From Polyangiaceae bacterium (GTDB taxonomy: Bacteria > Myxococcota_A > Polyangia > Polyangiales > Polyangiaceae), in NCBI GenBank assembly GCA_965222375.1, contig CBDCTZ010000009.1:288001-352000 (forward strand): a DNA stretch of 64,000 bases, in the 5' to 3' direction. Below the pieces are notes generated by a model, which was not told the origin of the DNA, searched no databases, and saw only the letters and a list, made by a program, of their open reading frames with translations. This document shows positions 29,300 through 46,481 of this stretch, piece by piece (position 1 is the stretch's first letter; each line of letters starts with the position of its first letter). A program made the translations under genes and the position numbers.

Positions 29300-29327
29300 T
29301 GAATGCCTCGGGTCAGGTGTCCGATTA

Positions 29328-30068
29328 TCAACCCTGGCGCTGCAGCGCAACGACGAAGAAACCACCGAAGAATCTCAAAGGGGAATCACATAGCGCTCGC
29401 TCGGCGGTGCGAAGCACGGTCCGTGCTACGGGCAGCCGCATCAGACGGGCGGCTGGGGTCGCGACGCGGATCCCCCGGGAGCCGACGATGTCGAGGCCTT
29501 CAGGCACGTGCCGGCGAATGCCCAGCGGCGTGTCGAAGCGGGTGTAGACCTTGTCTTCGTGGGTGCCTTCGGCAACCCGCCCTGCGGGCGCCAAACGTTT
29601 GGCCAGGCCGCGCCAGCTGTAGGGGTTGTAGAATTCGGCCACGACCGTGCCGCCGGGTCGGGTGACCCGGGCCATTTCCGACAGGGCGCGCCGAATGTCT
29701 GGGATGTGAGCCAGCACTTTGAAAGAGCACGTTACATCGAAGCTCTCGCTTTGGAACGGAAGCTCCGTGGCGGAGCCCTCTACGACCTCGAGGCCGCGGG
29801 CACGGGCCTTTTCCAGCATGCCCGGGGAGAGATCCACACCCTGGGCGCGACGGGCAAAGCGCTCGATGCGGGTCAGCACCAGACCCGTGCCACAGCCCAC
29901 TTCCAGCACTTCACCACCTCGGCCAAAGCGCTCGACGTAGCCGGCTTCGAGCTCGTCCAACAGTTCGTGATAGCCACCGGGATCGTTGTCGCCGCGGTGG
30001 GATTCATACCCATCGCTGAAGGCGTCGTAATACGCGCGGTTGGCGTCGTGGCTGCCTGAGGCGTCCAT
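29328..30068 (-). CDS. Class I SAM-dependent methyltransferase
   Basis: VLEVGCGTG, GVDLSPGML, LPFQSESFD, EMARVTRPGG. Confidence 0.92.
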   Translation of the reverse strand: MDASGSHDANRAYYDAFSDGYESHRGDNDPGGYHELLDELEAGYVERFGRGGEVLEVGCGTGLVLTRIERFARRAQGVDLSPGMLEKARARGLEVVEGSATELPFQSESFDVTCSFKVLAHIPDIRRALSEMARVTRPGGTVVAEFYNPYSWRGLAKRLAPAGRVAEGTHEDKVYTRFDTPLGIRRHVPEGLDIVGSRGIRVATPAARLMRLPVARTVLRTAERALCDSPLRFFGGFFVVALQRQG

Positions 30069-30203
30069 TTGGAGCCAAGGTGTAGCAGAATCGGGCCTCG
30101 CGCAAGCCCGGGCGCAAATTCCGCGCGGAGCCCCTTCGCCCGCGCTTTGAGGGACTTGGCCGGGTTGTCGGATGGCAGAGCGGCTGTGAGGGAAGTTGCT
30201 AGG

Positions 30204-31523
30204 CTACTTGCGAGCGATTCGGGCGTTCATGCGCTCGTAGGCGAGTTCTGTCGGCGTGATCTTGCGCTCTCGAGCTGCGGCCAAGAGCTCGGTCGTTTTT
30301 GCACCGCAGATTTGGGACAGGGAGGCATGTACTCGCTCGACGCTGGCCAGATCTGCGTAGGTGCGTTCCTCGTGGCCGGCGATGACCCCACCGACCGTGA
30401 TGGTCCAGTCGGGCTGTGTCAAAATGTCCCGTTTGGCCAGTGCTCTAGCCAATTCAATTTCGCCATCGATGCTATCGGCATCCAGAGTGTTGTTCGCCGC
30501 GCCGTAGATCAACTTGCAGCTCAGCTCCGGGATCTGCGCGTTGCCGATGACGCCGCCCAGGGCGCATGGCGCGAGCAGGTCGCAGGGCGTGGCAAGCAGT
30601 CCTTCCGGCTTCAGCAGCTCGAGGTTCGGGATGGCGGACTGCGCCATCTCGACCCGTCGCGGCTCGGGATCGAAGGCCGCAACCTGCATGCCTGCCAGTG
30701 CGAGCCGCTCCGCCAGCGCCAGCCCCACACTGCCGAGTCCCTGGACCACAGCCTTCTTGCCGTCCAACTTGGAGCTGTGCCACAGGAACGCTGCCGCCGC
30801 GCGGATGGCGATGAAGATCCCCTCGGCGGTCGGCGCACCGGTGGGGCCGAGCGGCGTCGAGGTGCCACACAGGATGTTCGGAGTGAAGCGCTGACTCAAG
30901 GCGTCGATCAGATCTCCGGATAGGCCTACGTCGGGCCCGGTCATCAGGTGGCCGCGGTCGATGCAGAAGCCCAAGAACCCCAGCCGTGCTTCGTCGCTGC
31001 CGGCAATGGGATCCGCGAACAGTGTCGTCTTGCTACCGCCATAGGGCAGTTCCGCGTGAGCGCATTTGTAGCTCATGGCCCGGGACAGGTTGAGACCTGC
31101 GGCCAGTGCGTGTCGTTCGTTCGCATTGCGGGGGTAGCGGCGGATGCCGCCTGCGCGCAAGGCGTGCTGCGGTCGGCGCAAGCCCAGCGTGCTCGAGTGA
31201 ATGTAATGTGCGACTCGGACCTGCAATTCCGGATGAACACAGAGCCACACCATTTCGTGATGACCGCGGCGCATCCCGTCGAGCAATGCGTCCATCGCCG
31301 CCCCGGCGCCTTGCTGGGTCAACAGTTCGCGGGTCTCCGTGTCGCCCAAAGCTCGAGCATCGCGACACGCGACCTGGTCCAGTGCATAGCGGCGTCCATA
31401 GCCGCGAAAGTCCCAGCTTGCATCGAAGTCCCGACTTGCGTTGAGAGAGAAGCCACCGCTGTCGTCCGTGAGGACGCGAAGGGTGGTCAGGTTGCCATCG
31501 ACCAATGCGTCAAAGAGCCCCAT
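30204..31523 (-). CDS. Glu/Leu/Phe/Val dehydrogenase family protein (leucine dehydrogenase-like) with N-terminal extension
   Basis: AGGIR, AMSYK, GGSK, GPDVG, QGLGSVG, PCALGG, GAANN. Start ATG 31523. Confidence 0.88.
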   Translation of the reverse strand: MGLFDALVDGNLTTLRVLTDDSGGFSLNASRDFDASWDFRGYGRRYALDQVACRDARALGDTETRELLTQQGAGAAMDALLDGMRRGHHEMVWLCVHPELQVRVAHYIHSSTLGLRRPQHALRAGGIRRYPRNANERHALAAGLNLSRAMSYKCAHAELPYGGSKTTLFADPIAGSDEARLGFLGFCIDRGHLMTGPDVGLSGDLIDALSQRFTPNILCGTSTPLGPTGAPTAEGIFIAIRAAAAFLWHSSKLDGKKAVVQGLGSVGLALAERLALAGMQVAAFDPEPRRVEMAQSAIPNLELLKPEGLLATPCDLLAPCALGGVIGNAQIPELSCKLIYGAANNTLDADSIDGEIELARALAKRDILTQPDWTITVGGVIAGHEERTYADLASVERVHASLSQICGAKTTELLAAARERKITPTELAYERMNARIARK

Positions 31524-31909
31524 GCGCCTGAGGGTACTCCTATTGTCGCAGTCCCGCGCGGCCGCGACCCACCGAGGTGCCGAGCGCATGCGCCTTGTTT
31601 GCAGCGGGTTGGTTCTGCCGCATCCCGTGTGGCGTGTCTTGGGGACCGCGAGATTGACGGTCGTCACGTGCCTGGCTCTTGCCGCGGCCCAGCGAGCACC
31701 CCCACCCAGGACCACTGTTTATGGATCTGCCTCTGGTCACGTTTTGTCGACTGGGAGCCACATGCTGGCAGAACTCGCCCACGGCTCCAGACGGAGTCTA
31801 TTTGTAAATGTCGGAATTTGTTGGAGAAATCGGGAAGCGACTCAGCAATCAGGTAGGCTCCGTCTTGGCCGGAGCACATCTTCGGCCATCGCACGTAGAA
31901 GGTGAGGCG

Positions 31910-33082
31910 ATGGAGCGAATCGGTGAGTACCTCGTCCGCGGGCTGGTCGGTGAGGGCGGGATGGGCAAGGTCTACGAGGCCGAGGAGCGCCTGAGCAAGC
32001 GTCGCGTCGCGCTGAAGGTGTTGCGCCCAGAGTTTTCCCGTTCGGAGGAGGGGCGCCAGATGTTCCTGAACGAGATGACGATTCTGGCGCACCTGGACCA
32101 CGCGAACATCGTGCGCTGCCTGGCCTGCACCGAAAGCGACGACCAGCTCGTGATGGCCCTCGAGTTCCTGGAGGGGCGAACCTTGCGTCAGGTGCTTGCC
32201 GACAACGGCGCCTTGAGCTGGGAAGACGCGGTCGGGATCGCCGTGCAGATCGCTTCGGCCTTGGCTGCTGCTCACCGCCAGCAGCCGCCGATTGTGCACC
32301 GGGATCTGAAGCCCGAAAACGTGATGGTCCTCGACGACGGCACGGTCAAGGTCATGGACTTCGGAATCGCCAAGGTGCTGCAGGCACTCAGCGGAACCAC
32401 GACCCATAGCGTGGGAACCCTGCAGTACATGAGCCCGGAGCAGATCGACGCGACGGGCATCGACAATCGAAGCGACCTCTACTGTCTTGGGCTGGTGATG
32501 TACGAGATGCTTTCCGGCAAGCCGCCGTTCGAAAGTGCCTCACCCCGAGAGTTGCTCAACGCGCAGTGCACGGAAAAGCCACCGGACCTACCAGAAGACG
32601 TGCGATCCGGATTGCCTCGGGGCGTCGAGCGGCTGGTATTCGAATTGTTGGAGAAATCCCCGGACGACCGGCCCGCCTCCGCGCGAGACGTGCTGCACGA
32701 CCTCGACCCATTTGCCCCATCCCTGACCCGCGCCCCGCGCTCCCGGGCCTCGGGGCACACCGAGCGCATGCCGGCGCAGCCCAAGCCGAGCGAACGCGAG
32801 CCCCAGGCCGCTGCCGATGACGAACAACCGGCAGCGCCGCCCGCCGCCAAGCCCTCGACATCCCAGCCGTCCAAGAAACCAACCCCTCGCGCTGATACGC
32901 TGGCACTGGTCGAAACCGCGACGGCGCCTCGGGACGTCAGCCGCAACACGGGCTTGATCGTGATCCTCGCGCTGTCCGTGCTTGCCGGCGTGGTGACCTA
33001 CTTTGTGCGAGCCAGTGGAGCCGACGAGACGCCTCGGGAGGCGCCGTCGGCCTCCGCCGTGAGCGGCGAAGAATTCAGGTGA
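31910..33082 (+). CDS. Membrane-anchored Ser/Thr protein kinase (intact catalytic motifs, minimal ectodomain)
   Basis: GEGGMG, VALK, HRDLKPEN, DFG, GTLQYMSPE, SDLY; C-terminal TM GLIVILALSVLAGVVTYFV. GGTGAGG RBS before ATG 31910. Confidence 0.93.
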   Translation: MERIGEYLVRGLVGEGGMGKVYEAEERLSKRRVALKVLRPEFSRSEEGRQMFLNEMTILAHLDHANIVRCLACTESDDQLVMALEFLEGRTLRQVLADNGALSWEDAVGIAVQIASALAAAHRQQPPIVHRDLKPENVMVLDDGTVKVMDFGIAKVLQALSGTTTHSVGTLQYMSPEQIDATGIDNRSDLYCLGLVMYEMLSGKPPFESASPRELLNAQCTEKPPDLPEDVRSGLPRGVERLVFELLEKSPDDRPASARDVLHDLDPFAPSLTRAPRSRASGHTERMPAQPKPSEREPQAAADDEQPAAPPAAKPSTSQPSKKPTPRADTLALVETATAPRDVSRNTGLIVILALSVLAGVVTYFVRASGADETPREAPSASAVSGEEFR

Positions 33083-36069
33083 GCGAACCGCCCGATATTC
33101 CGGGGCTCACGCCAGCTGAGGCCCTACCGGATTTCGGGCGTGCACGGCGCTTTCGCCTTCCCGAAGACGAAGAGCTGTGGCTGCTGCACGAGGCCGATCG
33201 CGCTGTGCAGCAGCGGTTGCTCGAATTGGGCGCTGTAGGGCTTGGGCGCTTCTCGCGGGGTGGGGAGACAGTAGATGAACTGTGGTTGGTGCGGGGTTCG
33301 GCCACGCCCACCTTGGCTGGCTTTCTCGAAACCTCCAAACAGGTGCCCGTCGCCGATGCTCTCGAGATCCTGAGCAGCCTGTTGCGCGTGCTGGTCTTCG
33401 CCGAAGACGAGGCGCTGTTCCCGGGGCCCCTGGTGCTGGCTCAGATCCCACTTCACGAACGCCGAGTGGAGGTCTCGGCGGATGAACTCGTCGCGAGCCT
33501 CCTCGGCCACGCGGAGGCGTCGCCCGCTGCGGCTTCCAGTCGCGCGTCGCCGCGTTGGACGCCTCCGGAGCAGTCCGAGGGCGCGCCTTGGAACAACGCT
33601 GCCAACCGCTACGTGATCGGGCTTTTGATGTACCGCCTCCTGTCCGGGGAGCATCCCTTCGGCGGTCGCGGACTCAGGTTGGCGCTGGAGGCTCGGGCCG
33701 ATCGACCACCGCCGCCCTTCACGCCCGAGGTTGCGGAGCAGCTTTCCCCAGGGCTGCAGTCGTTGTGCCTGCGCTGCCTCGAGCCGGATCCATCCCGACG
33801 CCCACGCTCCGCCCAGGAAATCCTCGACACCCTCGAAGACATTCTGAGCAGCTCCCAGAACCAAACGCCACCTCCCGCTACGTCGCAAAGCAGGCCGGGC
33901 GGCGAATCACCCGAGCCGACCTCACGGCAGGAGCCCCGAGCCCCGGCCTCGGCGCCGCCGCGAGCGGCTGTTGCGCCGGGGCAAGTCCAGGCGAGTCGAC
34001 GTTGGGGCGGCTGGTGGATGCTGCTGGGCCTGTGCACCGCCTTGGCTGCTTGGTGGGGGCTGTCGCGTGGGCGATCCACCGAGCCTCCGCCAGTTCGCGC
34101 TCGCGCCCCGTTGAGCGCTAGCGGTTTGATTTCTGCGGACTGCGCGAGCTGCCATCCACGTCAAGCTGGGGAGTGGCGTCGCTCCGTCATGGCGCACTCC
34201 GTGAAGAGCCCGTTGTTCTTGTCGCTCGAGATGTTGATCCAGGAGCAAGCCGGCAAAGACTTCGATTGTCCCAACGGCGCTGGGATCTTGCGAAAGGCCG
34301 ACGCACGCACCGCATGTCGGGATCGAAACAGTGGTCAATTGGTCACGGGCGCCGGCGGAGAACACTGGTGCGTCAATTGCCACGCCCCGGCGGACAATTT
34401 GGCTACCACCGTGCCCGCCTGGAATGGCCGAGAGCGCACCGACAATCCGACGCTCCGAGAAGCGCTCTCGGAGCGGGCCTTGGAAGGGATCTCGTGTGCG
34501 TTTTGCCACCAAGTGCATCCGCCCACGGCGGGCCGCGTCCCGGCGACGGAGCTGGGCAATCCGTTTTGGGTTTCCCCGGTCACAGGTCGACGCTTCTCGG
34601 CTCGCCCTGAAGACGCCACGGGTCGAGTCGGGATTTCCAACAGCGGCTACGCGCTCGATCTGCAAGCGCTGTTTGCTGGCGACAAGGTGCCCGGCGGCGC
34701 CCATGCGCGCCCGGATCCAGCCACCCGTGAGTATTTGCGCTCCAGCGACTTCTGCGGTGCCTGTCACGATGTGAGGCTCTTCGGCACCGACGTGATCGGC
34801 GTGAAAGAACGGGGTGAGCACTTCAAGCGCTTGAGAAACGCCTACAGTGAATGGTCGGCCTGGGCGGCGACGGAAGAGCGCGCCGGGCGAACCCCCGCCA
34901 GTTGCCAGGACTGTCACATGACGCAGTACCCGGGGGTCTGCACGGAAGAGGCGGGGGACCAAACCGCGGTGGCGTCGGGGCTGAGAGACTCCTGCCCGCC
35001 GGGAACCCACTTCCAGTCTCGGCCCCCCGGCAGCTACCCCAAGGGGCTTGCGGCAACCGGAGCCGTGAAGCCGCGCCGGCTGAGCCTGCACTACTTTAGT
35101 GGCGTGGACACGCCGCTGGATCCGGGCTTCGACCCGCGTTTGGCCGAGGGCGACTGGACGGACGTGTTTTCCATCCCCCAGTCCCTGAGTCGTCGCGCCA
35201 AGATGCTGCTGGCGGCATCCGTGGAGCTTTCGCTGGGCACGCCTCGTCTCCGCGGCAGGCGTCTCGAGCTGCCGGTCAGCATCGAGAACACCGGCGCTGG
35301 GCATCGCGTACCCGCAGGATTCAGTCAGGAGCGTGAGCTCTGGGTTCATCTGACGGTTCGCGACGAGCAGGGGCGCGCCTTGTACGAAGTCGGTCGCGTC
35401 GACCGCTCGGACCAAGACTTGCGCGACAAGGTGTTCCTGCGCGTCAACACCGACGACCGATTCACGGATGGCCAAGGTCGCCCCCAGGGGCTCTTCGGCG
35501 CGGACGTGGCAGATGGCCCGGATGTTCCGCGCTGGCAGCCCAATCCACAGCTGGGTGGGACCCAGTTCCGAGGGCTCGGCCTGATCAACTTCCAGAACGG
35601 CTTCTTACGATGCGTCGTGTGTATCGGGCGGGTGGATTTCGATGGCAGTTGTAGGGCGCTGCCCGGCCAGGATCGCGCGCGGGCAGACCGTTTTGCCGAT
35701 GGCAGCTACGACATCGACACGGGGGAGTGCCGGAGCAATCTATCCGGCGAAAACGCGCTCTTCGAAACCTACTTCCCGGTGGGTGCCCTCGACGCGTCTC
35801 GAGGCGTGTTCAAAGCGGCTGACGCCATCATCGATCGGCGCTCACTAGCTCCAAACCAGCCGGTCACCTACACCTACGATCTGTCCTTGTCCGGCAGGCC
35901 CCACAGCGTCGAAGCGCGACTCTTGTTCCGGGCGTTTCCCCCGTTTCTGATCCGCGCATTCATCGAATACGAAGCCAAGAAGCGCCCCGGGCGCTCCCTG
36001 ATTGGCCAGGCCGCCATGGACCGCCTGGAGATCGTCGAGCTCGCCAAGACGCGGGTGGTGCTTCCGTGA
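33079..36069 (+). CDS. Pseudokinase-TM-pentaheme cytochrome c fusion with a C-terminal Ig-like domain
   Basis: Kinase C-lobe remnants (SPRWTPPEQ, YVIGLLMYRLLSGEHPF, CLEPDPSRRP); TM WWMLLGLCTALAAWWGL; five CxxCH at 34141, 34369, 34495, 34753, 34903; NTGAGHRVPAG. Confidence 0.85.
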   Translation: MSEPPDIPGLTPAEALPDFGRARRFRLPEDEELWLLHEADRAVQQRLLELGAVGLGRFSRGGETVDELWLVRGSATPTLAGFLETSKQVPVADALEILSSLLRVLVFAEDEALFPGPLVLAQIPLHERRVEVSADELVASLLGHAEASPAAASSRASPRWTPPEQSEGAPWNNAANRYVIGLLMYRLLSGEHPFGGRGLRLALEARADRPPPPFTPEVAEQLSPGLQSLCLRCLEPDPSRRPRSAQEILDTLEDILSSSQNQTPPPATSQSRPGGESPEPTSRQEPRAPASAPPRAAVAPGQVQASRRWGGWWMLLGLCTALAAWWGLSRGRSTEPPPVRARAPLSASGLISADCASCHPRQAGEWRRSVMAHSVKSPLFLSLEMLIQEQAGKDFDCPNGAGILRKADARTACRDRNSGQLVTGAGGEHWCVNCHAPADNLATTVPAWNGRERTDNPTLREALSERALEGISCAFCHQVHPPTAGRVPATELGNPFWVSPVTGRRFSARPEDATGRVGISNSGYALDLQALFAGDKVPGGAHARPDPATREYLRSSDFCGACHDVRLFGTDVIGVKERGEHFKRLRNAYSEWSAWAATEERAGRTPASCQDCHMTQYPGVCTEEAGDQTAVASGLRDSCPPGTHFQSRPPGSYPKGLAATGAVKPRRLSLHYFSGVDTPLDPGFDPRLAEGDWTDVFSIPQSLSRRAKMLLAASVELSLGTPRLRGRRLELPVSIENTGAGHRVPAGFSQERELWVHLTVRDEQGRALYEVGRVDRSDQDLRDKVFLRVNTDDRFTDGQGRPQGLFGADVADGPDVPRWQPNPQLGGTQFRGLGLINFQNGFLRCVVCIGRVDFDGSCRALPGQDRARADRFADGSYDIDTGECRSNLSGENALFETYFPVGALDASRGVFKAADAIIDRRSLAPNQPVTYTYDLSLSGRPHSVEARLLFRAFPPFLIRAFIEYEAKKRPGRSLIGQAAMDRLEIVELAKTRVVLP

Positions 36070-38348
36070 GCGAGGCTGCTCTCGCCAAAGCATTTCGGTC
36101 GCCGTTCTTTCGCGGGCTGGATGATCGCGGGCGTCAAGACCTGTCGCTGTCCAGTCGAGTCATCGAAATGAAAGCGGGCGAGGCCTTCTATCAAGAGGGC
36201 CAAGCCGCGGATAACTTGTTCGTCGTCGTCTCCGGGGAAGTGGCCCTCGAAGCCGTGCGTCGGGGGGACGACAACCTGAGCACCCTGCGCCTGGCGCGCC
36301 GAGGTGATCTGTTCGGCGAAGAAGCAACGGTGGTGGGCGCTACGCGCCTGTCCAGCGCTCGGGCCAAGAGTGTTGCCTGCGCGGTCGAAGTGCCCTTCGC
36401 CGTCGTTTCGCGAGTCCGGGTGCGCAGCGGCGTTGCCGAGGACGTTTTGTCTCGGGAGCAGCGCGCCCTTCGCCGCGCGCTATCGAGGGATGCCCTGCTC
36501 GCGTCGGCGTTGGGGAGGGACTTGCCCGAAAGCGATCTCTCGCTGCTGCTCGACGCGGCGCAGTGGCGCCAGGTCGCCCGTGGCGACTTCGTGTTTCAGG
36601 CGGGGCAAGCGCCCGACCGGGCGAGCGTTCTGGTCGCGGGCCTGGTTCAGCTCCAGACCGAGGAAGGCGGTCGAACCAGGGTCAGCGCCTACCTGAGCCG
36701 CGGCGACATCTTGGGTGACGACGCGGTGCTCGGTGGTCGGTCTCACGAACTAACTGCCGTGGCCCTGGGGGATCTGCATCTGTTGTCGGTGCCGCGAGCA
36801 GCCCTGCGCAGCGCCGTGGACCGCAACTCAGAGCTGCTGCGTGGCTTGCGCCGAGTCGCAGAAAGCCGAGGCGAGGCGCAGCGAGGACTGGTGGAAGGGC
36901 GAAACGAAAACGCCACCGGCCATGTGCTCGGCGACTTGTATCGAATGCACATTGCACGCTCGCTCTTGGTGATCGACCAAGACAGCTGCGTGCGCTGTGG
37001 CCAGTGCTCCCACGCCTGTGGAGATGTCTATGGCGCCACGCGGCTGGTACGCCGGGGCGACAAGATCGTGACGTCCCTGAAGATGGCGGAAGCGCCGAGC
37101 AGTCTCTTGGTGCCCAACAGCTGCCAGCATTGCGAAAATCCATCTTGCATGATCGACTGCCCGACCGGAGCCATCGGGCGTGACCCCCGCGGCGAGGTCT
37201 TCATTCGAGAGGCGCTCTGCACCGGGTGCGGAGCCTGCGCCAAAGCTTGCCCTTGGGAGAACATCCGCATGGCGCCGCGCCCGGGCGGTGGCGAGGCGAC
37301 GGATTCCGCGGTGGGCACCAGCGCTCTGGTTGCCACCAAATGCGATCTATGTCGTGAGCGCGATGGGCCGGCCTGCGTGGCCGCTTGCCCGACCGGAAGT
37401 ATTCTGCGCGTCGATCCATCCCGAGACTTTACGGAGGTGCTTGCCCTGTTTCCCGGCCGCGCACCGGCGCCCACCCAGGACACCGCGTTGCCCGGGGCGC
37501 GGCGCTCGCTTCGCTTCGTGCCCCTCTTCGCCGGCTTGGCCTTGATGGGCATGGGAGGGGGCTTGCATGCCGGAGGATACCTACGCGCTGGCAGCGGGCT
37601 GGGACTGGTTTTTGGGTGGGTGTCGTTGCTTGTTTTGCTCTCCCTGTTTGCGTACGGGTTTCAAAAGCGCGGCTACCGTCGCATTGCACGAACCCGACAC
37701 AAGGGGGCCCGCGCCGAAGCTCTGGACTTGACCCAGGTGCCGACCCGACGTGCCTTCGACTGGCACACGTGGTTGGGCTTTTCCGCCCTGGGCGCCGTTG
37801 CGCTTCACGCGGGCCTGAAGCTGTCGGGCTCAGCGCATACCTTCGTGGGGACCATCTTTTGGTGCTCCAGCGCGTTGGGCGTGCTCGGTTTGGTGGCCTA
37901 CCGGGCGTTGCCCCGGGCGCTGACCCGCATCGAACGTCGCGGGCTGCTGCCGGAAGACTTTCGTCGCGAGCGTCAGCGTTTGCTCGACCGCCTCTACCAC
38001 GCGACTAGCGGCAAGAGCGAAGCCGTCAAACTGCTCGTGAGCCGCGTGCTCATGCCCTACGCTCGCGCGCCCTGGGGGGGCCTGGTGTTGGTCGCATCGC
38101 GCCGGTCCCTGCGAGAAGAACAGCAGCGGCTCAAGGGAAAGCTCGAGGGCATTCTGGGGGACAAGGCGGTGGCCCTCGAGCGCGATCTGGACGAACTGAT
38201 CAAGACCGTCGTGGAGATCCGCGCGCTGCCCGCGCGGCGAGTTCTGACCGCGCTGCTCCGGGGCGTCGTTCCCGCTCACGGGCTGACCCTGGGTCTGCTC
38301 GCCGTCTTCCTCGTGATCCACCTGATTGCCGTGTCGGGGTTGTTTTGA
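36066..38348 (+). CDS. Tandem cNMP-binding domains + DmsB/NrfC-type 4x[4Fe-4S] domain + membrane domain with putative di-heme b ligands
   Basis: FGEEATVVGATRLSS (phosphate-binding cassette); 16 Cys in CVRCGQCSHAC, CQHCENPSCMIDC, CTGCGACAKAC, CDLC...CVAAC; two H-X13-H helices. Confidence 0.88.
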   Translation: MSEAALAKAFRSPFFRGLDDRGRQDLSLSSRVIEMKAGEAFYQEGQAADNLFVVVSGEVALEAVRRGDDNLSTLRLARRGDLFGEEATVVGATRLSSARAKSVACAVEVPFAVVSRVRVRSGVAEDVLSREQRALRRALSRDALLASALGRDLPESDLSLLLDAAQWRQVARGDFVFQAGQAPDRASVLVAGLVQLQTEEGGRTRVSAYLSRGDILGDDAVLGGRSHELTAVALGDLHLLSVPRAALRSAVDRNSELLRGLRRVAESRGEAQRGLVEGRNENATGHVLGDLYRMHIARSLLVIDQDSCVRCGQCSHACGDVYGATRLVRRGDKIVTSLKMAEAPSSLLVPNSCQHCENPSCMIDCPTGAIGRDPRGEVFIREALCTGCGACAKACPWENIRMAPRPGGGEATDSAVGTSALVATKCDLCRERDGPACVAACPTGSILRVDPSRDFTEVLALFPGRAPAPTQDTALPGARRSLRFVPLFAGLALMGMGGGLHAGGYLRAGSGLGLVFGWVSLLVLLSLFAYGFQKRGYRRIARTRHKGARAEALDLTQVPTRRAFDWHTWLGFSALGAVALHAGLKLSGSAHTFVGTIFWCSSALGVLGLVAYRALPRALTRIERRGLLPEDFRRERQRLLDRLYHATSGKSEAVKLLVSRVLMPYARAPWGGLVLVASRRSLREEQQRLKGKLEGILGDKAVALERDLDELIKTVVEIRALPARRVLTALLRGVVPAHGLTLGLLAVFLVIHLIAVSGLF

Positions 38349-40375
38349 CCGAGCCTGCCTCGACCCCCAGGCCAACGCCGGCGTCGACTGCGGCGGACGA
38401 GCCGAGCGACGTGCGGCGCCTGAGCGGGCTGTATGCGGGTGCCATCGTGGCCGCGGTTGTGACCGTGCTGTCCGTGTTCATCAGCGAGGGGAGGGCGGCC
38501 CTCACGTCTCCCGGAGCCCTGTCGGCGCCCCACGTCCGCGCGGAGGTGGGGTGCGCGGACTGTCACTCCGCCTCGAAACCCGCCGCGGCTTGCGGCGAGT
38601 GTCACGGCCCACATCCCTCGACCCGCGCTGGCCATCAGGAGATGCGGCGCCAGGGCAAGATGTCCTGCATCACCTGTCATGACAGCCATCGCTCCGACCA
38701 AGGCGTAGCACTGCTCAAGAGCGGGATAGCCGAGCGTTACGGCAACGGTTGGGCGGTGCGGTCCAGCGAAGCAACGGGTTTTAGAGCCACCAAGCCGGTG
38801 TTCGTCGCCACCGTCGCTGCAAGCAAGTGTGGCGGCTGCCATCGCCTTTCGGATCCACGCGACGCGATCTTCACCTGCCTCGATTCCGCCACGCCCGGGC
38901 CAGCTGCGTCGCGGCCAACGCTGTGTTTCGACGAGCACCAAACCGCGGCCAATGCCCGGAAGAAAAAGGTCGCTCGAGACGGCGCATGGGAGGCTGCGCG
39001 CGTCGTGCTCAGCAATACGCCTGCCGCGCCGGCGTCGGGTCGCTTGGGCTGGCTGCTCTTGGGCCTCGGGGCGGGCGGCCTGGTCTGGACAGGACGCCAG
39101 CTCCAGTTGCGCTATCGCAAGCGGAGCGTAGGCGGGCGCCCCACCGGAGGCATGGTTCCCGCGCAAGTGGTGCGGCTGCCGCAGATCAACGCCGCCACCT
39201 GTCTGGGTTGCAACGCCTGCGTCGACGCGTGCCCCTACAACGTGATCGAAATGCGTTCCTACATCGCCGAGGTCGCGCGCCCGGACGATTGCTGCGGCCT
39301 GACCTTGTGTGAGCAGAAATGTCCCAACGGCTCTCTGGTCGTGCGCGAAGGCGAGCCCATCGTCGATCGCCCCCGGGTGGATGAGGAGCTTCAGAGCGCG
39401 GAAGTGCCGGGACTGTTCTTGGCCGGGGATCTCACCGGGCTGCCACTGATCAAGAACGCCATCAATCAGGGCGCGTATGCCGTGCGGGCGATTGCGAAAC
39501 AGCTTCCGAAGCGCAAGCGAGGCCGCTCGGAGTTGGACGCAGACGTCATCGTCGTCGGGGCGGGGCCCGCGGGGCTTTCGGCGGCACTCGAGGCCAAGAG
39601 TCAGGGCTTGAGCGTGGTCGTCGTCGAGCAAGGCAGCGTAGCATCGAGCATTCAAAGCTTTCCCCGGGGCAAGCTCGTTTTCGACCAGCCCTTGGACGTG
39701 CCCCTGGTGGGTGAACTCTGGTTGGAGGAATCCACCAAAGAAGAGTTGCTCTCCCAGTGGCTGCGCATCGTGCGTCGGCACAACCTGGACATCCGCGAAG
39801 GCACGCGGGTGATTCAGATCGCACCCTTTGAAGACGCGTCCGGGTTTCGAGTCCAAACCCGCACCGAAGATGGCAGCGAGAAAGAACTGCGCGGTCAGCG
39901 CGTCGTGCTCGCGATCGGGCGCCGGGGCACTCCCCGTCGCTTGGACGCACCCATCGAGGATGCTGCGCTTTCGCAGGTGTTCTACGGGATCTCGGACGCG
40001 TCGAGTTTCGCTGGCTCGAAGGTGTTGGTGGTCGGGTTGGGGGATTCCGCCTTGGAGGCGGCCGTTGCGCTCTGTCATCAACCCGATACCCATGTGACCG
40101 TCGTCCACCGAGGGCAGGATTTTCGTCGGGGCACCCCACGCAACATCGCGGCGCTCAAGACTGCAGCAGAGCGCGGCAAAGTGGACTTGAGGTTCGAAAC
40201 CGTGGTGACGAAGGTTTCCAAAGACCGCGTCACCCTGAGTACTCGTGGCGTGGAGAGCTCACTTTCGGTGGACGCGACCGTCGTCTTGATCGGTGCCCTG
40301 GCGCCCTGGCCCTTTCTAGAGCGGATCGGCATTCGTCGCCCCACCGAAGGGCGCAACTCGAACGGCGCAACGTAG
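38345..40375 (+). CDS. Tetraheme cytochrome c-TM-ferredoxin-TrxR-like FAD/NAD(P)H oxidoreductase fusion
   Basis: N-terminal TM; SPGALSAPH; CxxCH at 38552, 38591, 38666, 38828; second TM; CLGCNACVDACP; GLFLAGD; VVGAGPAG; VVGLGDSA; VHR. TTG start overlaps the previous stop. Confidence 0.87.
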   Translation: MTEPASTPRPTPASTAADEPSDVRRLSGLYAGAIVAAVVTVLSVFISEGRAALTSPGALSAPHVRAEVGCADCHSASKPAAACGECHGPHPSTRAGHQEMRRQGKMSCITCHDSHRSDQGVALLKSGIAERYGNGWAVRSSEATGFRATKPVFVATVAASKCGGCHRLSDPRDAIFTCLDSATPGPAASRPTLCFDEHQTAANARKKKVARDGAWEAARVVLSNTPAAPASGRLGWLLLGLGAGGLVWTGRQLQLRYRKRSVGGRPTGGMVPAQVVRLPQINAATCLGCNACVDACPYNVIEMRSYIAEVARPDDCCGLTLCEQKCPNGSLVVREGEPIVDRPRVDEELQSAEVPGLFLAGDLTGLPLIKNAINQGAYAVRAIAKQLPKRKRGRSELDADVIVVGAGPAGLSAALEAKSQGLSVVVVEQGSVASSIQSFPRGKLVFDQPLDVPLVGELWLEESTKEELLSQWLRIVRRHNLDIREGTRVIQIAPFEDASGFRVQTRTEDGSEKELRGQRVVLAIGRRGTPRRLDAPIEDAALSQVFYGISDASSFAGSKVLVVGLGDSALEAAVALCHQPDTHVTVVHRGQDFRRGTPRNIAALKTAAERGKVDLRFETVVTKVSKDRVTLSTRGVESSLSVDATVVLIGALAPWPFLERIGIRRPTEGRNSNGAT

Positions 40376-40617
40376 CTCCTGCAGTTCGAGTCGCTCTCCA
40401 CATTCGTGGTGCGTGCAGGGGCGGAGGTCACGAATCGCCCCGTCATCGCCACTAGATCTCGGAGGCACGCAGCAAAGCGCGGCCACCGAATCGCGTAAGT
40501 GTATGAAAATAAAGGACTAGGTCGCTCAGATCCGCGCGCGCCGTCATGCGTAGAAGTGAGCTGGGTGTAAGGCGGGCGGCGAACGCCCCGTTTTCGGTCG
40601 AAAGGGACAAACGCAGC

Positions 40618-42096
40618 ATGAAGGTCAAAACAGTTGGGCTCCTTTCCCTATGCGGCATGCTGCTTTCGAGCGTGACGGTTTGGTCCCTGACCAAAGATCG
40701 CGCGCTCGCGGAGCCCGAGCTGGGCTCGGCGCCCCTCGAGATCACTGCGCCGACGCCCCAGAGCGTCGGTGCGACCTTCACCGCCGGGCGCACCATCATG
40801 CTCGAAGGCCGGTTGGGCCACGACACGCTGCAGTCCGAAAAGGTCGGGGAGACCTTGTTGCTGCTCACCGCCACCGCGGACAAAGGCGCGGCGACCAAGG
40901 CGGCGTCGCCTCTGAACCTCTCGATCGTGATCGATCGCTCCGGCTCCATGAAGGGCCGCCGCCTCGCCAACGCTCTGGATGCCGCACGCGGCATGGTGGG
41001 ACGGTTGCGAGACGGGGATGCGGTCAGCGTGGTGACCTACAACACCACCACGGAGGCCATCGTCCCTTCGACGACCATCGACTCCTTCTCTCGAAGTCGC
41101 GTGTTGAGGTCCCTGTCCAATATTCGGGCCAGCGGAGATACATGTATCTCCTGCGGCATCGACGCGGGCATGGAGCAACTGCGGCGCCGCGGCGGCATGG
41201 TGGATCGCGTGCTGCTGCTCAGCGACGGTGAGGCCACCGCCGGCGTGCGCAACGTAGAAGGCTTCCGCCGCATCGGCTCTCGGGTGCGCAACATGGGCGC
41301 CAGCATCTCCGCCATTGGTGTGGACGTGGAATACAACGAGCGCGTCATGAGCGCCTTGGCTCTCGAGTCGAACGGGCGTCACCACTTCGTCGAAAACGCA
41401 GCGAAGTTGCCGGAGGTCTTCGACGCGGAGCTCAAGACTCTGGTGAACACCGTCGCAAAGGACACGGAAGTGGCCGTGCAGCTGGCGCCCGGGGTGACTG
41501 TGGCCCGGGTATTCGACCGAACCTTCCGCCAGGAGGGTGATCGTTTGATCGTGCCCTTCGGGACTTTCTCGGCGGGGGAAGAGAAGACCTTGTTGGTCAA
41601 GCTCGCCGTGGCGAAAGGTGCCGCTGGCAAGCGTCCCATCGCGGATGTGAAAATGACCTACGCTGATTTCGCTCAGGGCGGCAAAGGCACTTGCGTCGGC
41701 AAACTCGCCCTTGCTCTGACCGACGACCCCAGCCTGCTCGGCGGCCTCGATCCGGTCGTGCAAACCCGTCTGGTTCGCAGCGAGACAGCCCATGCCCTCA
41801 AGGAAGCGAACCGACTGTTCACTTCGGGCCGTACCGCGGAGGCGCGCAACAAGCTGCGCAACTCCCTCGATCAGGTCAATCGACAAAGAGAAGCCGCCCT
41901 TGCCCGCGCACCGAAGCCAAAGCGCGCTCGGCTGAAGGCAGATTTCGCGGATCAATCCGTGGCCCTTGGTGAAGCTTCGGAAGGATTCGCAGAAGCGCCC
42001 GCAGCGCAACCTGGCGCTGGTGCGCCTGCCGCAGCTCCCAGTCCGGCCGCACAGGTTCGGCGCAACGCATCGACCGCTGACGACTTCGCTTTCTAG
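40618..42096 (+). CDS. Secreted or membrane-anchored VWA domain protein (YfbK-like)
   Basis: N-terminal hydrophobic segment; MIDAS IDRSGSM, GDT, LLSDG. Start ATG 40618. Confidence 0.88.
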   Translation: MKVKTVGLLSLCGMLLSSVTVWSLTKDRALAEPELGSAPLEITAPTPQSVGATFTAGRTIMLEGRLGHDTLQSEKVGETLLLLTATADKGAATKAASPLNLSIVIDRSGSMKGRRLANALDAARGMVGRLRDGDAVSVVTYNTTTEAIVPSTTIDSFSRSRVLRSLSNIRASGDTCISCGIDAGMEQLRRRGGMVDRVLLLSDGEATAGVRNVEGFRRIGSRVRNMGASISAIGVDVEYNERVMSALALESNGRHHFVENAAKLPEVFDAELKTLVNTVAKDTEVAVQLAPGVTVARVFDRTFRQEGDRLIVPFGTFSAGEEKTLLVKLAVAKGAAGKRPIADVKMTYADFAQGGKGTCVGKLALALTDDPSLLGGLDPVVQTRLVRSETAHALKEANRLFTSGRTAEARNKLRNSLDQVNRQREAALARAPKPKRARLKADFADQSVALGEASEGFAEAPAAQPGAGAPAAAPSPAAQVRRNASTADDFAF

Positions 42097-42260
42097 CTTG
42101 GACTAACGCGGCATGCTGCCGCTTGCGAACGCGCCTGGCGCGTGAGACCGTTCAAAATCACCGACCCTGAGGGAGCTACCCCCTTCCGCCCAAGCCTGGG
42201 CGCGACGGCGGGCGCATGCCGAGCTGTTCGGTACCTAGGAAATCGAAACCGGAGCAAGTC

Positions 42261-45200
42261 GTGAACGAAGCCAAGAAGACGCTCGATCTCAAGAAGCTCG
42301 TGACGCGGGGGGTGCTGGCGCTCATGGCACTCGGCGTGGTTGTTGCCGTGATTGCCTACGTTGCAACCCGGAAACCACCGCCGGTCAAAGCATTGGCCAT
42401 CCAAGCGCGCCTGGAACTCGCTGCGGGTGAAGTCAGCGTGGACATGGGGGAGGGCCCTGCCCGTGCCGTGAGCGGCACGCCGCTCATGGACAATGCGCGG
42501 ATTGCCACCGCCGACGGAGCCCGCGCACTCGTACGGCTGCCAGATGGTTCGGCGTTGTTTATCCGAGCCGGGAGTGCCCTGAGCTTGGGCGCGGATTCCG
42601 TGAGCTTGGACAAAGGCGAGTACTTCGTGGATGCGCCCCCGACGGAACGAAAGCCAACGAGTCACGCCGTTGGGGAAGCGGTGGTCACCGCAGCGGAGGC
42701 CGGTTTCGATGTGCGTCGGGATGGCGACAGCGTAGTCGTCTACGTTGCGCGAGGCACGGCGACGGTCACGGGCAGGGGCGGACGCGCAGAAGTGAAGGCG
42801 GGTGAGCAAGCCACGATCAAGGGCGCCGACAAACCCGCTGTGTCGCCAGTGGCGTTCTGGGACGACTGGACCGGCGGCATGGCGGACTTTGGCTCGGGTG
42901 CGCTGCTTGCCGGTACCGGTGCCGGCTCGATCTATGGAGTCGACGTCGGGGCTTCGCCGGGTTCTCCGGCGCGCCGCCTGGAGATCAGCAAACAGTCGGT
43001 TCGCGCCGTGTTGCGGGAAGGGCTCTCGGAAACGGAAGTCGACCAGACCTTTTTCAACCCCGGCGAGCGCGCCGTCGAGGGTTGGTACTGGTTTTCCGTG
43101 CCCGAGGGCGCCAGCGTCACTGGCTTTGCTCTGGAAACCAACGGAATCCTGGTCGAGGGGGAGTTCAACGAACGTCGGGAGGCTGCGGCGCAGTACACCA
43201 CCGCGAAGTCGAGCGGTCACGCCCCGGCAATTCTGGAGTGGATCGATAGTCGAACCTATCGAGCGCGGATCTATCCGGTGCCTGCCGGTGGCAATCGTCG
43301 CGTCGTTCTGCGCTACATCGAAATGCGTCCGCCGGTGGGGTCGAAGCTGTCCTACGAATACCCCATGGGCGCCGGCAAGCCCGTGCGCATCGGCGAGTTT
43401 TCGCTGTCCGTGGACTTGGGGGACGCGGGCACCAAGATGAAGATTGCCACCCTCGCGGACGCGCGGGTGGAAAACGGCGGACGCCGAGTCACCATGCGCC
43501 GCTCTGGGTATACGCCCCGAGCCGACTTCCAGCTCGAGGCGGACCTGCCGAAGAAGCGCCCGCCCATGACCGTGGCGCGGTTTTCGGCTGGGGGCGAGAG
43601 CGCCGACTACGTGCTGGCTCGATATGTTCCTGACGTCGATTGGAAGAGCGCCAAGCAGCAGCGCGGTGACGTGGTGGTCGTAGTCGATACCTCTGCGGCG
43701 GGCGATGAGGCCGCGCATCAATTGAAGACGGCCGCAGCAGAGTCGATCCTTCGTGCCCTATCCGGCGAAGATCGTTTCGCACTGGTTGCCTTGGATGTGC
43801 GGCCCACCGTGCTCTATCCCAAAGATGGCCTCGCCAAGGCTGGCGACAAGGAGATAGCGAAGGCGCTGGAATCTTTGGCAGATCACGCCGTCGGGGGCGC
43901 CACGGATCTCGCCGCTCTCTTCGATGTGGCCCTCGGCCGTTTGCACGGCGCGGAGCAGCCCGCGGTGGTCTACGTCGGGGATGGCATCGCGACCAGCGGC
44001 GAAATGAGCGGGGAGCAGCTGGTAGAGCGCCTGCGCCGAGCCATTGGTACCTCCCGGGCCCGCTTGTTCACGGTCGGGGTTGGCACTGATGCCCACTATT
44101 CGCTTCTGGGCGAGTTGGCCCGTGCGGGCGGCGGCACGAGTTTGCGCGTCGACGAAGCCGAGCAGACGACGGCCCGCGCCCTGGAACTGGCCGCTGCGGT
44201 CAAGACCCCCACGATCACGGATCTCGAGATCGATCTCGGGGCTGGCTTGGACGAGCCGTTCTCCTCGGCCGCGGGCAAGGTCAGTCGCGGTTCCGAAGTG
44301 GTGGTGCTCGCCCGCACCCACCACGACATTCCCCGCATGGTCAAGGTGCGGGGGCGCCTCGGTGGCGAGAAGTTCGAAAAGGAGTACGAGGTCAAACGCG
44401 ACAGCAGCATCTTGAGCAGCTTTGTACCGAGGCTGTGGGCGGCTGAGTACGTGAAGCGCTTGCTGGGTTCCGCATCAGGACCCGAGGCCGAGCGCGGACG
44501 CATCGTGTCCCTAGGCGTGGACTACGGGTTGATGACGCCCTTCACGAGCATCTTGGCGCTCGAGAGCGAGTCCGCGTACATGCGCATGGGGATCCCGCGC
44601 AAGCGCACCAAACTGCGCGGCGTGCGCCTCGGCGCGCTCACCAAGGACGCAGAGATGCGTTTGGCCTCCCGGCACGCGGGGATCCCCGCTGCCAGCTTGC
44701 CGTTGGGTTGCAGCACGCTCGAGCGCATGGCCGGGGATTCAGAGCCAGCTCCTGCGGAGAATGTCAAGGGCAAGGCCTACGGGGTACAGGCAGCTCCGGC
44801 GAGCCCTGCGCCGGTGACTGCTTCGCCAGGCTTTGCGGGTAAGGACGACGAGTCTCGAGAGGAGGCCATGCCCGCCACTCAGGAGCCTCAAGCCGCGGCG
44901 GCTCCAGCGGAGGATTCCGTCGCCGAAGCCGAAGCGGATCAAGCTCCGATGAAGGCTCAGGTGGCCAAGAAGCCAGCGACGGGCCGCACCTATGCGAGAC
45001 CCAAGTATAGGCCGCGACCCAAGCCTTCTCTGGGCCCTGGGGCCTCGGGCGGCAAGGGGACCTTCGATGCGCCCAAGCGTCTCAACCGGCCCGCAGAGAA
45101 GAAAGAAGGCAAGCGCGGAGGGTTGGATCTTGCGAAACTCTCGGAGGGATTCAAACACTCGGGTCAGGTGGCTGTGCTGCGCACCTGCAGCGACACCTCT

Positions 45201-46481
45201 GCTCGCCCCTTGGCTCAGCGCGTACTGCTCTGGCAGAAGCGCGTGAAGGCCGCCAAGGGCGCGGGCGAGCTGATCCGGCGCTATGACGCGGCACGGTCTG
45301 CCTGCGAGCTGAACGACTGGCGAGCGGAGCGGACCTTCCTGGAGCTGTTGCAGCGTCGCGTAGATAACGAGGGCTCCGCCACTGTCCTGCTGAGTCACTT
45401 CGCAGGTCGCCCGGACGTGCAAAAGCATCTCGCGAAACTGATCCTTCGCCGCGCCGTCGATGCGCGCTTGGTCGCGGCGGTGGAGCGAACGCTCTTTGGC
45501 AGCGCGGTGGATTGGGCTGCCGTGGATCGAGACTTGTCGGCAATCGAAGACGTTGACAAGCGGATCGAGAAGCTGCGAGAAGCCATGGCCAAGGCTCCGG
45601 AAGATCCCAACGGCGGCATGCGACTGGTGAAGCTGCTGGTCGAAGCCAATCGCAAAGACGAAGCCGTCGCCTTGGGGCGCCGGCTTCGTGACCAGGGGCT
45701 GCTGACCCCGGGGATCGCTCGGGGGCTCGGAGACGTTCTTGCGCGGTCCGGGCATGCCCAAGAAGCCGTGCGCACCTACTCTGAGATCGTGGAGTTCGAT
45801 CCCGAAGGCGTAGCGTCCCGCCGGCTACTGGGCGACATATATCTCGGTCACGAGTGGTACGAACCTGCCTATCGGCAGTATCGCACCATCACCGAACTCG
45901 ATGACAAGGACCCCTTGGGTTGGCTCCGACTGGCCGCCGCCGCTGCAGGCACTGGGCGCATCGACGAAGCGTTGCGCCTGGAGCGTAAGGTGGCCAGCGC
46001 CCAAGGCACGCCGGGTCCCAACGACCCCCGGCGCTGGGCCCGGCTTTGGAGCGCTTCGCGAATTGCACGACTGATGGCGCAGCCACCCAAGCCCGCCAAG
46101 GGGCAGCCCCCGGTGGACGCTGCACGGCGTAAAGCCAGCCTGAAACGCAAGCTGAAAGAACTCGGCCTGTTCAGTGGCCCGGGCCGCTTGGTCGTGCTCA
46201 CCTGGGAGGAGCTATCTCATCAGTTCGCGCTCAGTGCGACGGTCGAGGACAGCGCGCAGGGCCTTGGGGAATCGACGGATGCGGCCAAGGCCGGGCTCTA
46301 CGCCACGATGCTCACTCTCGCGGACGCCCAACGCGCGAGCTTCCGCGCAAACTTGCGCACGGAACCCGTGGACCACGATGTGTCGGTGATCCGCCACGAG
46401 ATCACTTGGAACGCCAAGGACTTCCAGGTCAAGGTGAAGAAGCTCAACTTGCCTGCGAAGACAAGGACCCTCGCGCTCTAG
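42261..46481 (+). CDS. Large membrane-anchored FecR-like + VIT + VWA + TPR protein
   Basis: N-terminal TM; FecR-like RLPDGS...VYVARGTATV; VIT TEVDQTFFNPG...EGWYWFSVPEGASVTGFAL; VWA VVDTS...GGATDL...YVGDG; C-terminal TPR-like helices. GGAG before GTG 42261. Confidence 0.85.
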   Translation: MNEAKKTLDLKKLVTRGVLALMALGVVVAVIAYVATRKPPPVKALAIQARLELAAGEVSVDMGEGPARAVSGTPLMDNARIATADGARALVRLPDGSALFIRAGSALSLGADSVSLDKGEYFVDAPPTERKPTSHAVGEAVVTAAEAGFDVRRDGDSVVVYVARGTATVTGRGGRAEVKAGEQATIKGADKPAVSPVAFWDDWTGGMADFGSGALLAGTGAGSIYGVDVGASPGSPARRLEISKQSVRAVLREGLSETEVDQTFFNPGERAVEGWYWFSVPEGASVTGFALETNGILVEGEFNERREAAAQYTTAKSSGHAPAILEWIDSRTYRARIYPVPAGGNRRVVLRYIEMRPPVGSKLSYEYPMGAGKPVRIGEFSLSVDLGDAGTKMKIATLADARVENGGRRVTMRRSGYTPRADFQLEADLPKKRPPMTVARFSAGGESADYVLARYVPDVDWKSAKQQRGDVVVVVDTSAAGDEAAHQLKTAAAESILRALSGEDRFALVALDVRPTVLYPKDGLAKAGDKEIAKALESLADHAVGGATDLAALFDVALGRLHGAEQPAVVYVGDGIATSGEMSGEQLVERLRRAIGTSRARLFTVGVGTDAHYSLLGELARAGGGTSLRVDEAEQTTARALELAAAVKTPTITDLEIDLGAGLDEPFSSAAGKVSRGSEVVVLARTHHDIPRMVKVRGRLGGEKFEKEYEVKRDSSILSSFVPRLWAAEYVKRLLGSASGPEAERGRIVSLGVDYGLMTPFTSILALESESAYMRMGIPRKRTKLRGVRLGALTKDAEMRLASRHAGIPAASLPLGCSTLERMAGDSEPAPAENVKGKAYGVQAAPASPAPVTASPGFAGKDDESREEAMPATQEPQAAAAPAEDSVAEAEADQAPMKAQVAKKPATGRTYARPKYRPRPKPSLGPGASGGKGTFDAPKRLNRPAEKKEGKRGGLDLAKLSEGFKHSGQVAVLRTCSDTSARPLAQRVLLWQKRVKAAKGAGELIRRYDAARSACELNDWRAERTFLELLQRRVDNEGSATVLLSHFAGRPDVQKHLAKLILRRAVDARLVAAVERTLFGSAVDWAAVDRDLSAIEDVDKRIEKLREAMAKAPEDPNGGMRLVKLLVEANRKDEAVALGRRLRDQGLLTPGIARGLGDVLARSGHAQEAVRTYSEIVEFDPEGVASRRLLGDIYLGHEWYEPAYRQYRTITELDDKDPLGWLRLAAAAAGTGRIDEALRLERKVASAQGTPGPNDPRRWARLWSASRIARLMAQPPKPAKGQPPVDAARRKASLKRKLKELGLFSGPGRLVVLTWEELSHQFALSATVEDSAQGLGESTDAAKAGLYATMLTLADAQRASFRANLRTEPVDHDVSVIRHEITWNAKDFQVKVKKLNLPAKTRTLAL

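Follow-up and report, generated by a model that had tools for sequence, protein, structure and literature searches.

A 64,000-nucleotide stretch of the genome of a Polyangiaceae bacterium (assembly GCA_965222375.1, contig CBDCTZ010000009.1, positions 288,001 to 352,000 of the forward strand; hereafter the window, numbered from its first letter) encodes a 676-residue protein (38345..40375, + strand, as are all features below unless stated) that combines a cytochrome, a ferredoxin and a flavoprotein in a single chain. The open reading frame (ORF) begins with TTG, overlaps the TGA of the gene upstream, and specifies in order a first transmembrane helix (TM1), four CxxCH motifs, a second transmembrane helix (TM2), a two-cluster ferredoxin, and a circularly permuted flavoprotein without CxxC that resembles YpdA and ferredoxin:NADP+ reductases (FNR). 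Every motif quoted in an earlier interpretation of the bare sequence (the sequence-only reading) was located in this ORF: CCGLTLCEQKCP at residue 316, SAEVPGLFLAGD at 351, NAINQG at 371, VVGAGPAG at 403, GLGDSA at 564, VHR at 587, CxxCH at 70, 83, 108 and 162, and further C178 and C194-FDE-H198. These motifs are not chance occurrences, because residues 275-676 have 6132 homologs at E ≤ 1e-20 (8000 candidates scored) and the Cys and His residues are invariant where covered; the four CxxCH motifs, the ferredoxin cysteines and the motifs for flavin adenine dinucleotide (FAD) and reduced nicotinamide adenine dinucleotide phosphate (NADPH) are invariant in the best 120 homologs covering them. The best homologs belong to myxobacteria wherever the organism is named, cultured carriers being Minicystis rosea, Polyangium spumosum and Paraliomyxa miuraensis. 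The gene is real and conserved, and the structure model of its product has a mean predicted local distance difference test (pLDDT) score of 86.4.

Matches to Pfam, NCBIfam and known structures are confined to residues ~396-669, the FAD/NADPH core (39533..40339, with GLGDSA and HRGxxxR), and correspond to residues 1-273 of YpdA only, so the last 50 residues usual in the thioredoxin reductase (TrxR) fold are missing from the end of the chain. The sequence-only reading had placed this segment ahead of the first FAD motif, where a relocated strand (GD) and helix were found (residues 341-390; 39365..39514). The moved segment alone has weak matches in the PDB (best relevant E 0.034), of which 8 of 10 are flavoenzymes, and positions 120-161 of a 38-sequence profile align weakly to residues 270-315 of a Sulfolobus TrxR whose core ends at 266. 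Decisive evidence comes from relatives at 12 loci that have the normal order of core, C-terminal segment, and then cyclic nucleotide-binding (cNMP) and iron-sulfur (FeS) domains: a profile made from their post-core segment only matches residues 352-381 of the 676-residue protein (E 5.9e-7), and the ORF ranks first for it among the 52,965 six-frame ORFs of the genome. Comparison with normal-order relatives thus confirms the permuted order. The permuted order is present in 145 of 149 representatives (50% identity), the other four having no match for the moved segment; no second C-terminal segment follows the core in any of the 149, and a remnant of tandem duplication was rejected on that ground. 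In a quick-method tree of 83 core domains, whose root is not reliable and which therefore does not tell how many permutation events took place or in which direction, the myxobacterial fusions and the normal-order proteins each form a clade (SH-aLRT, the Shimodaira-Hasegawa-like approximate likelihood ratio test, 100). The permuted reductase is a circularly permuted form of the TrxR fold that occurs naturally and is widespread.

Several other arrangements of the permuted module were observed. Chains of ~975 residues (P0234, P0263 and P0268) comprise a cNMP-like N-terminus, a ferredoxin, the permuted reductase and a membrane domain of the HX13H type described below, the enzyme apparently lying as an insert in a four-cluster ferredoxin, between its third and fourth Cys motifs (sequences of two inspected), an insertion that the adjacent new termini of a permuted enzyme would allow. 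A second architecture (L131-L138, L149, L150, L171 and L177-L180) has the moved segment and core at the N-terminus, followed by several transmembrane helices and a C-terminal 4Fe-4S domain (weakly Fer4_5), and most of its loci are without nearby multihaem genes. The permuted reductase shares a chain with 20-34 CxxCH motifs in P0178, P0195, P0204, P0261 and P0266, and the ferredoxin-reductase module is extended by long haem-free C-terminal regions in P0188, P0201, P0212, P0214, P0220, P0222 and P0230 and at L120-L125 and L130, regions that have no Pfam match at E 1e-11 in those scanned.

The absence of a CxxC active site, the NADP(H)-type motif and the atypical second FeS motif in the sequence-only reading all withstood comparison with homologs. 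CxxC precedes the nucleotide motif in none of 353 module sequences, and Tyr/His-Arg follows it in 331 of them, matching the 2'-phosphate motif described for TrxR and FNR (accessible part of PMC8564101). R589 is kept in 120 of the 120 best homologs, the NADPH-site motifs being GLGDSA and HRGQDFR, and NADPH is the likely cofactor. In the ferredoxin (39179..39337), cluster I is canonical; in cluster II, Leu319 takes the place of the second Cys, and Cys317 is an additional invariant cysteine. Of 184 sequences in the myxobacterial group, which have the extra Cys one residue after the first, 183 carry Leu, Val, Ala or Phe at the second position of cluster II, versus His (79), Cys (13) or Asp (5) among 116 other sequences, the two groups being partly defined by this motif itself. 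Either a [3Fe-4S] cluster or a Cys317-ligated [4Fe-4S] cluster would fit.

The structures closest to the core are the bacillithiol disulfide reductase YpdA/Bdr (PDB 7A76, 7A7B), which is the best match in sequence (E 3.5e-25) and in structure (Z 20.8, root-mean-square deviation (rmsd) 5.6, 265 aligned), and the TrxR-type FNRs. YpdA/Bdr shares with the core the absence of CxxC and an NADPH-type motif, as might be expected if the protein were a YpdA-like reductase of low-molecular-weight disulfides that is incidentally membrane-tethered. Such a function is most improbable, as the score for TIGR04018 (YpdA/Bdr) is 138.7 bits versus a cut-off of 339.9, Ala stands in place of the GGGPCG Cys and Arg-Arg in place of the two Tyr of ATGYY, residues that we take to be functional in YpdA, no BshA scores above cut-off in the 98%-complete genome, and the association with FeS, haem-b and cytochrome partners, which is constant, would be left unexplained; the protein also differs from YpdA/Bdr in its permuted order and in its fusion to a ferredoxin and a cytochrome. 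It likewise falls outside thioredoxin reductase proper (TIGR01292, 69.8 versus 343.45), also having no CxxC. TrxR-type FNRs (PDB 3AB1, 5YGQ, 3LZW and 6GAS) have the same fold without CxxC and a GxGxxA and HRRxxxR-like NADPH site, and their chemistry, from NADPH to a one-electron carrier, is likely alike, but the ferredoxin is tethered in the 676-residue protein. A trait of these FNRs is a C-terminal helix bearing an FAD-stacking residue (PMC10294844). Here the chain ends at the equivalent of YpdA residue 273, and the moved helix is joined to the FAD motif by a variable linker that spans 17-41 residues from motif to motif (n = 339). Because the FAD-stacking helix is absent, the protein is not a TrxR-type FNR in the strict sense; the FNR-type enzyme of the sequence-only reading is supported as a role by the reductase slot of the ptd-like loci compared below, and not as family membership.

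The tetrahaem domain (38531..38938) lies between TM1 (residues 28-48; 38426..38488; Kyte-Doolittle hydropathy 2.32, a helix in the model), which is a predicted N-in anchor, and TM2 with the basic stretch that follows it (residues 234-261; 39044..39127), a weak segment (hydropathy 1.11) that is nevertheless helical in the model. Among 142 full-length fusions, median hydropathy is 2.27 for TM1 and 1.65 for TM2, which reaches at least 1.2 in 134. Because Lys and Arg are more numerous after than before TM2 in 136 of the 142 and before than after TM1 in 120, the haems are predicted to be outside and the flavin inside. Maturation of c-type haem requires the haems to be outside. Both the placement of the four CxxCH motifs between two helices and the separation of haems and flavin by the membrane had been proposed from the sequence, and both are supported. 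Across 100 aligned sequences, Cys178, Cys194 and exactly four His residues outside CxxCH (63, 97, 115 and 198) never vary, and H90 is present in only 84 of 105 homologs. The fifth Cys/His segment (C178/C194/H198) is less likely to hold a fifth haem, contrary to the earlier suggestion, since there are only four additional invariant His and H198 is one of them; it probably provides a disulfide and the fourth distal His, and four bis-His haems with one Cys178-Cys194 disulfide are the simplest reading. The domain is modelled confidently (pLDDT 92), and its only fold match, a weak one, is to the small tetrahaem cytochrome of Shewanella (1m1p; Foldseek E 0.31, Z 3.0, rmsd 3.6, 78 aligned); neither fold searches nor an Atlas search assigned it to a clear family.

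The gene immediately upstream (36066..38348) encodes two cNMP-binding domains, of which the first keeps the GE...R pattern and the second is degenerate, 16 invariant Cys corresponding to four 4Fe-4S clusters (Fer4_11), and a membrane domain for which no second family member was found in this genome and for which profile search found no solved relative. Four His of this domain are conserved in 17 of 17 sequences as the pairs H567-x13-H581 and H738-x13-H752, and would bind two b haems, as HX13H pairs do in ferric-reductase domains (He et al. 2017, PMC5566968, accessible part). The sequence-only reading held that the 676-residue protein depends on this neighbour, and such a partnership is supported because the two are fused in single chains elsewhere: reductase and membrane domain are joined in 8 of 269 proteins, and at the 12 normal-order loci the reductase is fused to paired cNMP domains and four FeS clusters (one without a cNMP match), 3 of them including the membrane domain in one chain of 1118-1135 residues. 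In other lineages (Pseudomonadota, Bacteroidota, Acidobacteriota and others, among the best 80 of at least 592 matches) the reductase stands alone, and at 60 of 73 loci (63 after one iteration) a homolog matched by the profile of myxobacterial membrane domains lies no more than 10 kb away; 61 of the 73 have a cytochrome of at least five haems, and 28 have ccm-like genes (labelled from reading the sequences). Just downstream of the reductase, 49 of the 73 loci (L038-L110) also encode a ~660-residue protein with a signal peptide and Sel1 and ankyrin-like repeats (similarly labelled). The N-terminal motif of the tetrahaem domain, PG-x-L-xxx-H ahead of haem 1 (relaxed post hoc), recurs in 89 of the 103 multihaem genes that come immediately after the membrane gene, compared with 15 of the 133 remaining multihaem genes at the same loci. 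Elsewhere in this genome, G000:C14:816861-824694 contains ORFs for 12, 12, 27, 3 and 4 haems, possibly a separate conduit, with no HX13H-family membrane protein beside them.

The membrane domain might instead exchange electrons with menaquinone, giving an NADPH:quinone branch and a quinol-linked periplasmic branch with no direct wire between them. A quinone-active cytochrome b has been proposed for this membrane family (He et al. 2017, accessible part), and both halves of the system are membrane-tethered. This arrangement is unlikely, however, considering that the four His conserved in 17 of 17 permit a two-haem transmembrane path without quinone, that reductase, FeS clusters and membrane domain occur repeatedly in a single chain, and that no motif for a quinone site was recognised, although no such motif was modelled in particular.

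The 676-residue protein is encoded by the fourth gene of a conserved five. The first encodes an intact Ser/Thr kinase (31808..33082; VALK, HRDLKPEN and DFG) with a C-terminal transmembrane helix; the second (33079..36069) encodes a pseudokinase, a kinase-like domain without HRD, followed by a transmembrane helix and a pentahaem cytochrome that has a beta-sandwich at its C-terminus (PtdA or cytochrome c552-like); the third is the cNMP-FeS-membrane gene; and the fifth encodes an exported vWA protein (40618..42096; DRSGS), the longest ORF beginning at 40546 and homologs favouring the ATG at 40618. Of 17 other fusion-bearing loci, 5 end at a contig edge, and the 12 that are long enough all keep the first four genes, complete and in order; the vWA gene is next in 15 of 17, L113 and L114 being those where it was not found. 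The reductase is present in one form or another in 113 of 301 genomes of the phylum, and the tetrahaem fusion and this type of pentahaem occur, adjacent to each other, in the same 11 of the 301. In 4 of 36 relatives scanned, the reductase-cytochrome chain itself bears an FHA domain, at the N-terminus (P0179, P0187, P0205 and P0218), which strengthens the link of the operon to kinase signalling already indicated by the conserved signalling partners; a similar 986-residue fusion (L127:6138-9098) is beside a cNMP-FeS-membrane gene and genes for 4, 12 and 5 haems. Past the vWA gene, a FecR-VIT-vWA-TPR protein (42216-46481) is kept in place in L111 and L112, which are the two closest loci, and in no others, and the ferritin-like, methyltransferase-like and Glu/Leu/Phe/Val dehydrogenase-like genes upstream (28433-31715, - strand) are linked only in L111 or L112.

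The pentahaem gene is matched by NF040886 (E 0.0027) and weakly by Thermochromatium tepidum cytochrome c552 (5ZE8, E 4.9). It has in common with c552 and MccSep/ExtKL (PMC13510729, accessible part) five collinear haem motifs and a C-terminal beta-sandwich, and differs in its fusion to a pseudokinase and in having Phe, in an invariant PAGFSQER, where MccSep has selenocysteine. It scores 16.4 versus 250 bits for the MccSep/ExtKL polysulfide reductases, and the loop equivalent to DG(U)P contains no selenocysteine or Cys (PAGFS in 13 of 13), the positions being matched indirectly via 5ZE8. A distant paralog of the pentahaem domain with five CxxCH is located at G000:C16:422355-424055.

With partners such as these, electron flow could be incidental, the redox cofactors of a conformational signalling receptor merely sensing its state. 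The conserved kinase, pseudokinase, cNMP and vWA partners and the FHA domains of 4 in 36 relatives would fit a receptor of this kind, but it is improbable given that the ligands of FAD, NADPH, FeS clusters and haems are all invariant and that the same modules serve large conduits whose mapped clusters contain no kinase.

The 676-residue protein is rather likely to form both the point of entry for NADPH and the first cytochrome on the periplasmic side in a short inner-membrane wire, along which electrons would pass from NADPH through FAD, FeS clusters and haem b to periplasmic haems, the cofactors, direction and end acceptor being deduced from the motifs and partners described. NADPH would reduce FAD in the permuted TrxR-fold domain, a step indicated by fold and motifs. 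FAD, having no CxxC to serve, would then hand single electrons to the tethered two-cluster ferredoxin, which may pass them to the two b haems of the upstream protein, either directly or via its four FeS clusters. From there they would reach the four bis-His c haems, which TM1 and TM2 are predicted to hold at the membrane. The last step is the weakest: with no porin in the cluster, the electrons probably end on the operon's own periplasmic pentahaem cytochrome. Gating of this flow may fall to the cNMP domains, and its reporting or control may fall to the kinase and pseudokinase.

Electrons might also flow inward, with the pentahaem oxidising a periplasmic donor and NADP+ being reduced at an exit point. 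TrxR-type FNRs are reversible. Direction is unreadable from the sequence, and PCC3, like the related PCC4, is known from Fe(II) oxidisers, where it was first found and for which inward flow was modelled (PMC5566968, accessible part). Inward flow is nonetheless rather improbable, because ferric-reductase-type dihaem domains in NOX/FRE carry electrons outward from NAD(P)H (the family link being that of the same source) and because transfer from c haems to NADP+ is normally uphill, with no evident energy-coupling subunit among the operon's products. The outward wire has other points to contend with: the models of PCC3, PCC4 and ptd are hypotheses themselves; a quinone-active membrane domain, as proposed in the accessible part of He et al., would split the wire in two; the relaxed N-terminal motif is present in only 88 of 144 fused tetrahaem proteins; the tetrahaem profile matches ptd decahaems weakly (E 3e-6 to 8e-3) and PtdD-like proteins not at all; the pentahaem is encoded without a pseudokinase in L037; and kin genomes are not independent.

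A narrower purpose is possible, and is put forward tentatively: the cNMP-gated NADPH wire might serve only to adjust or restore the redox state of the pseudokinase's pentahaem ectodomain, and the pseudokinase would control the adjacent Ser/Thr kinase. If so, a respiratory-type conduit would have been repurposed in myxobacteria as the circuit for input to, and reset of, eukaryote-like signalling, powered by the permuted flavoenzyme. The operon may offer a physical link from electron flow to Ser/Thr kinase signalling.

The known systems closest to this operon are conduits: PCC3 and PCC4, defined with their HX13H membrane proteins by He et al. 2017 (PMC5566968), and the ptdABCDEFG operon named by Elbon et al. 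(bioRxiv 10.1101/2023.11.21.568154), which on gene content may be treated as one system with PCC4 (accessible parts of both sources). A pentahaem with beta-sandwich (PtdA), a cNMP-FeS protein (PtdE, pfam13247), a ferric-reductase-like membrane protein with two HX13H pairs (PtdF), a reductase, and, following the membrane gene, a cytochrome anchored in the membrane are common to ptd/PCC4 and the window. At the 12 ptd-like loci examined, homology extends through the FeS part (E about 1e-25 to 1e-32) and the membrane part (E 5e-20 to 6e-8), and the profile of the window pentahaem matches the pentahaems of two loci (E 9e-17 and 2e-5), a shorter type of 385 residues in four loci being without a match. 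In contrast to ptd/PCC4, the window genes are fused pairwise, kinase, pseudokinase and vWA genes are added, and the cytochrome has four haems, not ten. The contiguous operon has no room for the porin (PtdB), the decahaem (PtdG) or the tetrahaem PtdD in the window or at the 12 full loci, a crude screen for a porin was negative, and PtdD-like proteins do not match the tetrahaem profile. The reductase is of permuted TrxR fold, whereas at 9 of the 12 ptd-like loci the neighbouring reductase is of the flavohaemoglobin type (FAD_binding_6/NAD_binding_1/Fer2), unrelated to the 676-residue protein, and PtdC-like proteins give no match to the core profile. Because an unrelated reductase fills the ptd slot, what the slot calls for appears to be transfer from NAD(P)H to FeS, in favour of an FNR-like role for the permuted enzyme.

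PCC3, described as untested in the accessible parts of PMC10734462 and bioRxiv 10.1101/2025.02.27.639646, has a homologous HX13H membrane protein, and stand-alone reductases are found beside PCC3-like clusters, but the porin and the two very large multihaem cytochromes of PCC3 (18-60 haems) are not found in the window operon. An open frame of at least 2396 residues in one PCC3-like cluster (L175:1-7190, - strand) has 91 CxxCH motifs; the maximum number reported in the accessible part of He et al. 2017 is 85. The available text of that paper makes no mention of the reductase, and its Table S6 contains an unnamed 'other redox protein' of 796-805 residues, a size that would match the normal-order relatives. 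Neither the permuted enzyme nor the kinase-linked operon was found described in the open-access literature; supplements on PCC4 and ptd may show some of the architectures.

Judged by its gene content and homologies, the operon is a condensed, fused, porin-less relative of the ptd/PCC4 and PCC3 conduits rather than a member of either. It offers a candidate cytoplasmic end for those conduits, in that three apparently interchangeable reductases (permuted TrxR, normal-order TrxR and flavohaemoglobin type) are found beside the same membrane protein, suggesting that such wires reach NAD(P)H and not quinone alone. The myxobacterial version, with two redox genes and one acceptor, is the smallest of these systems and hence would be the easiest to reconstitute.

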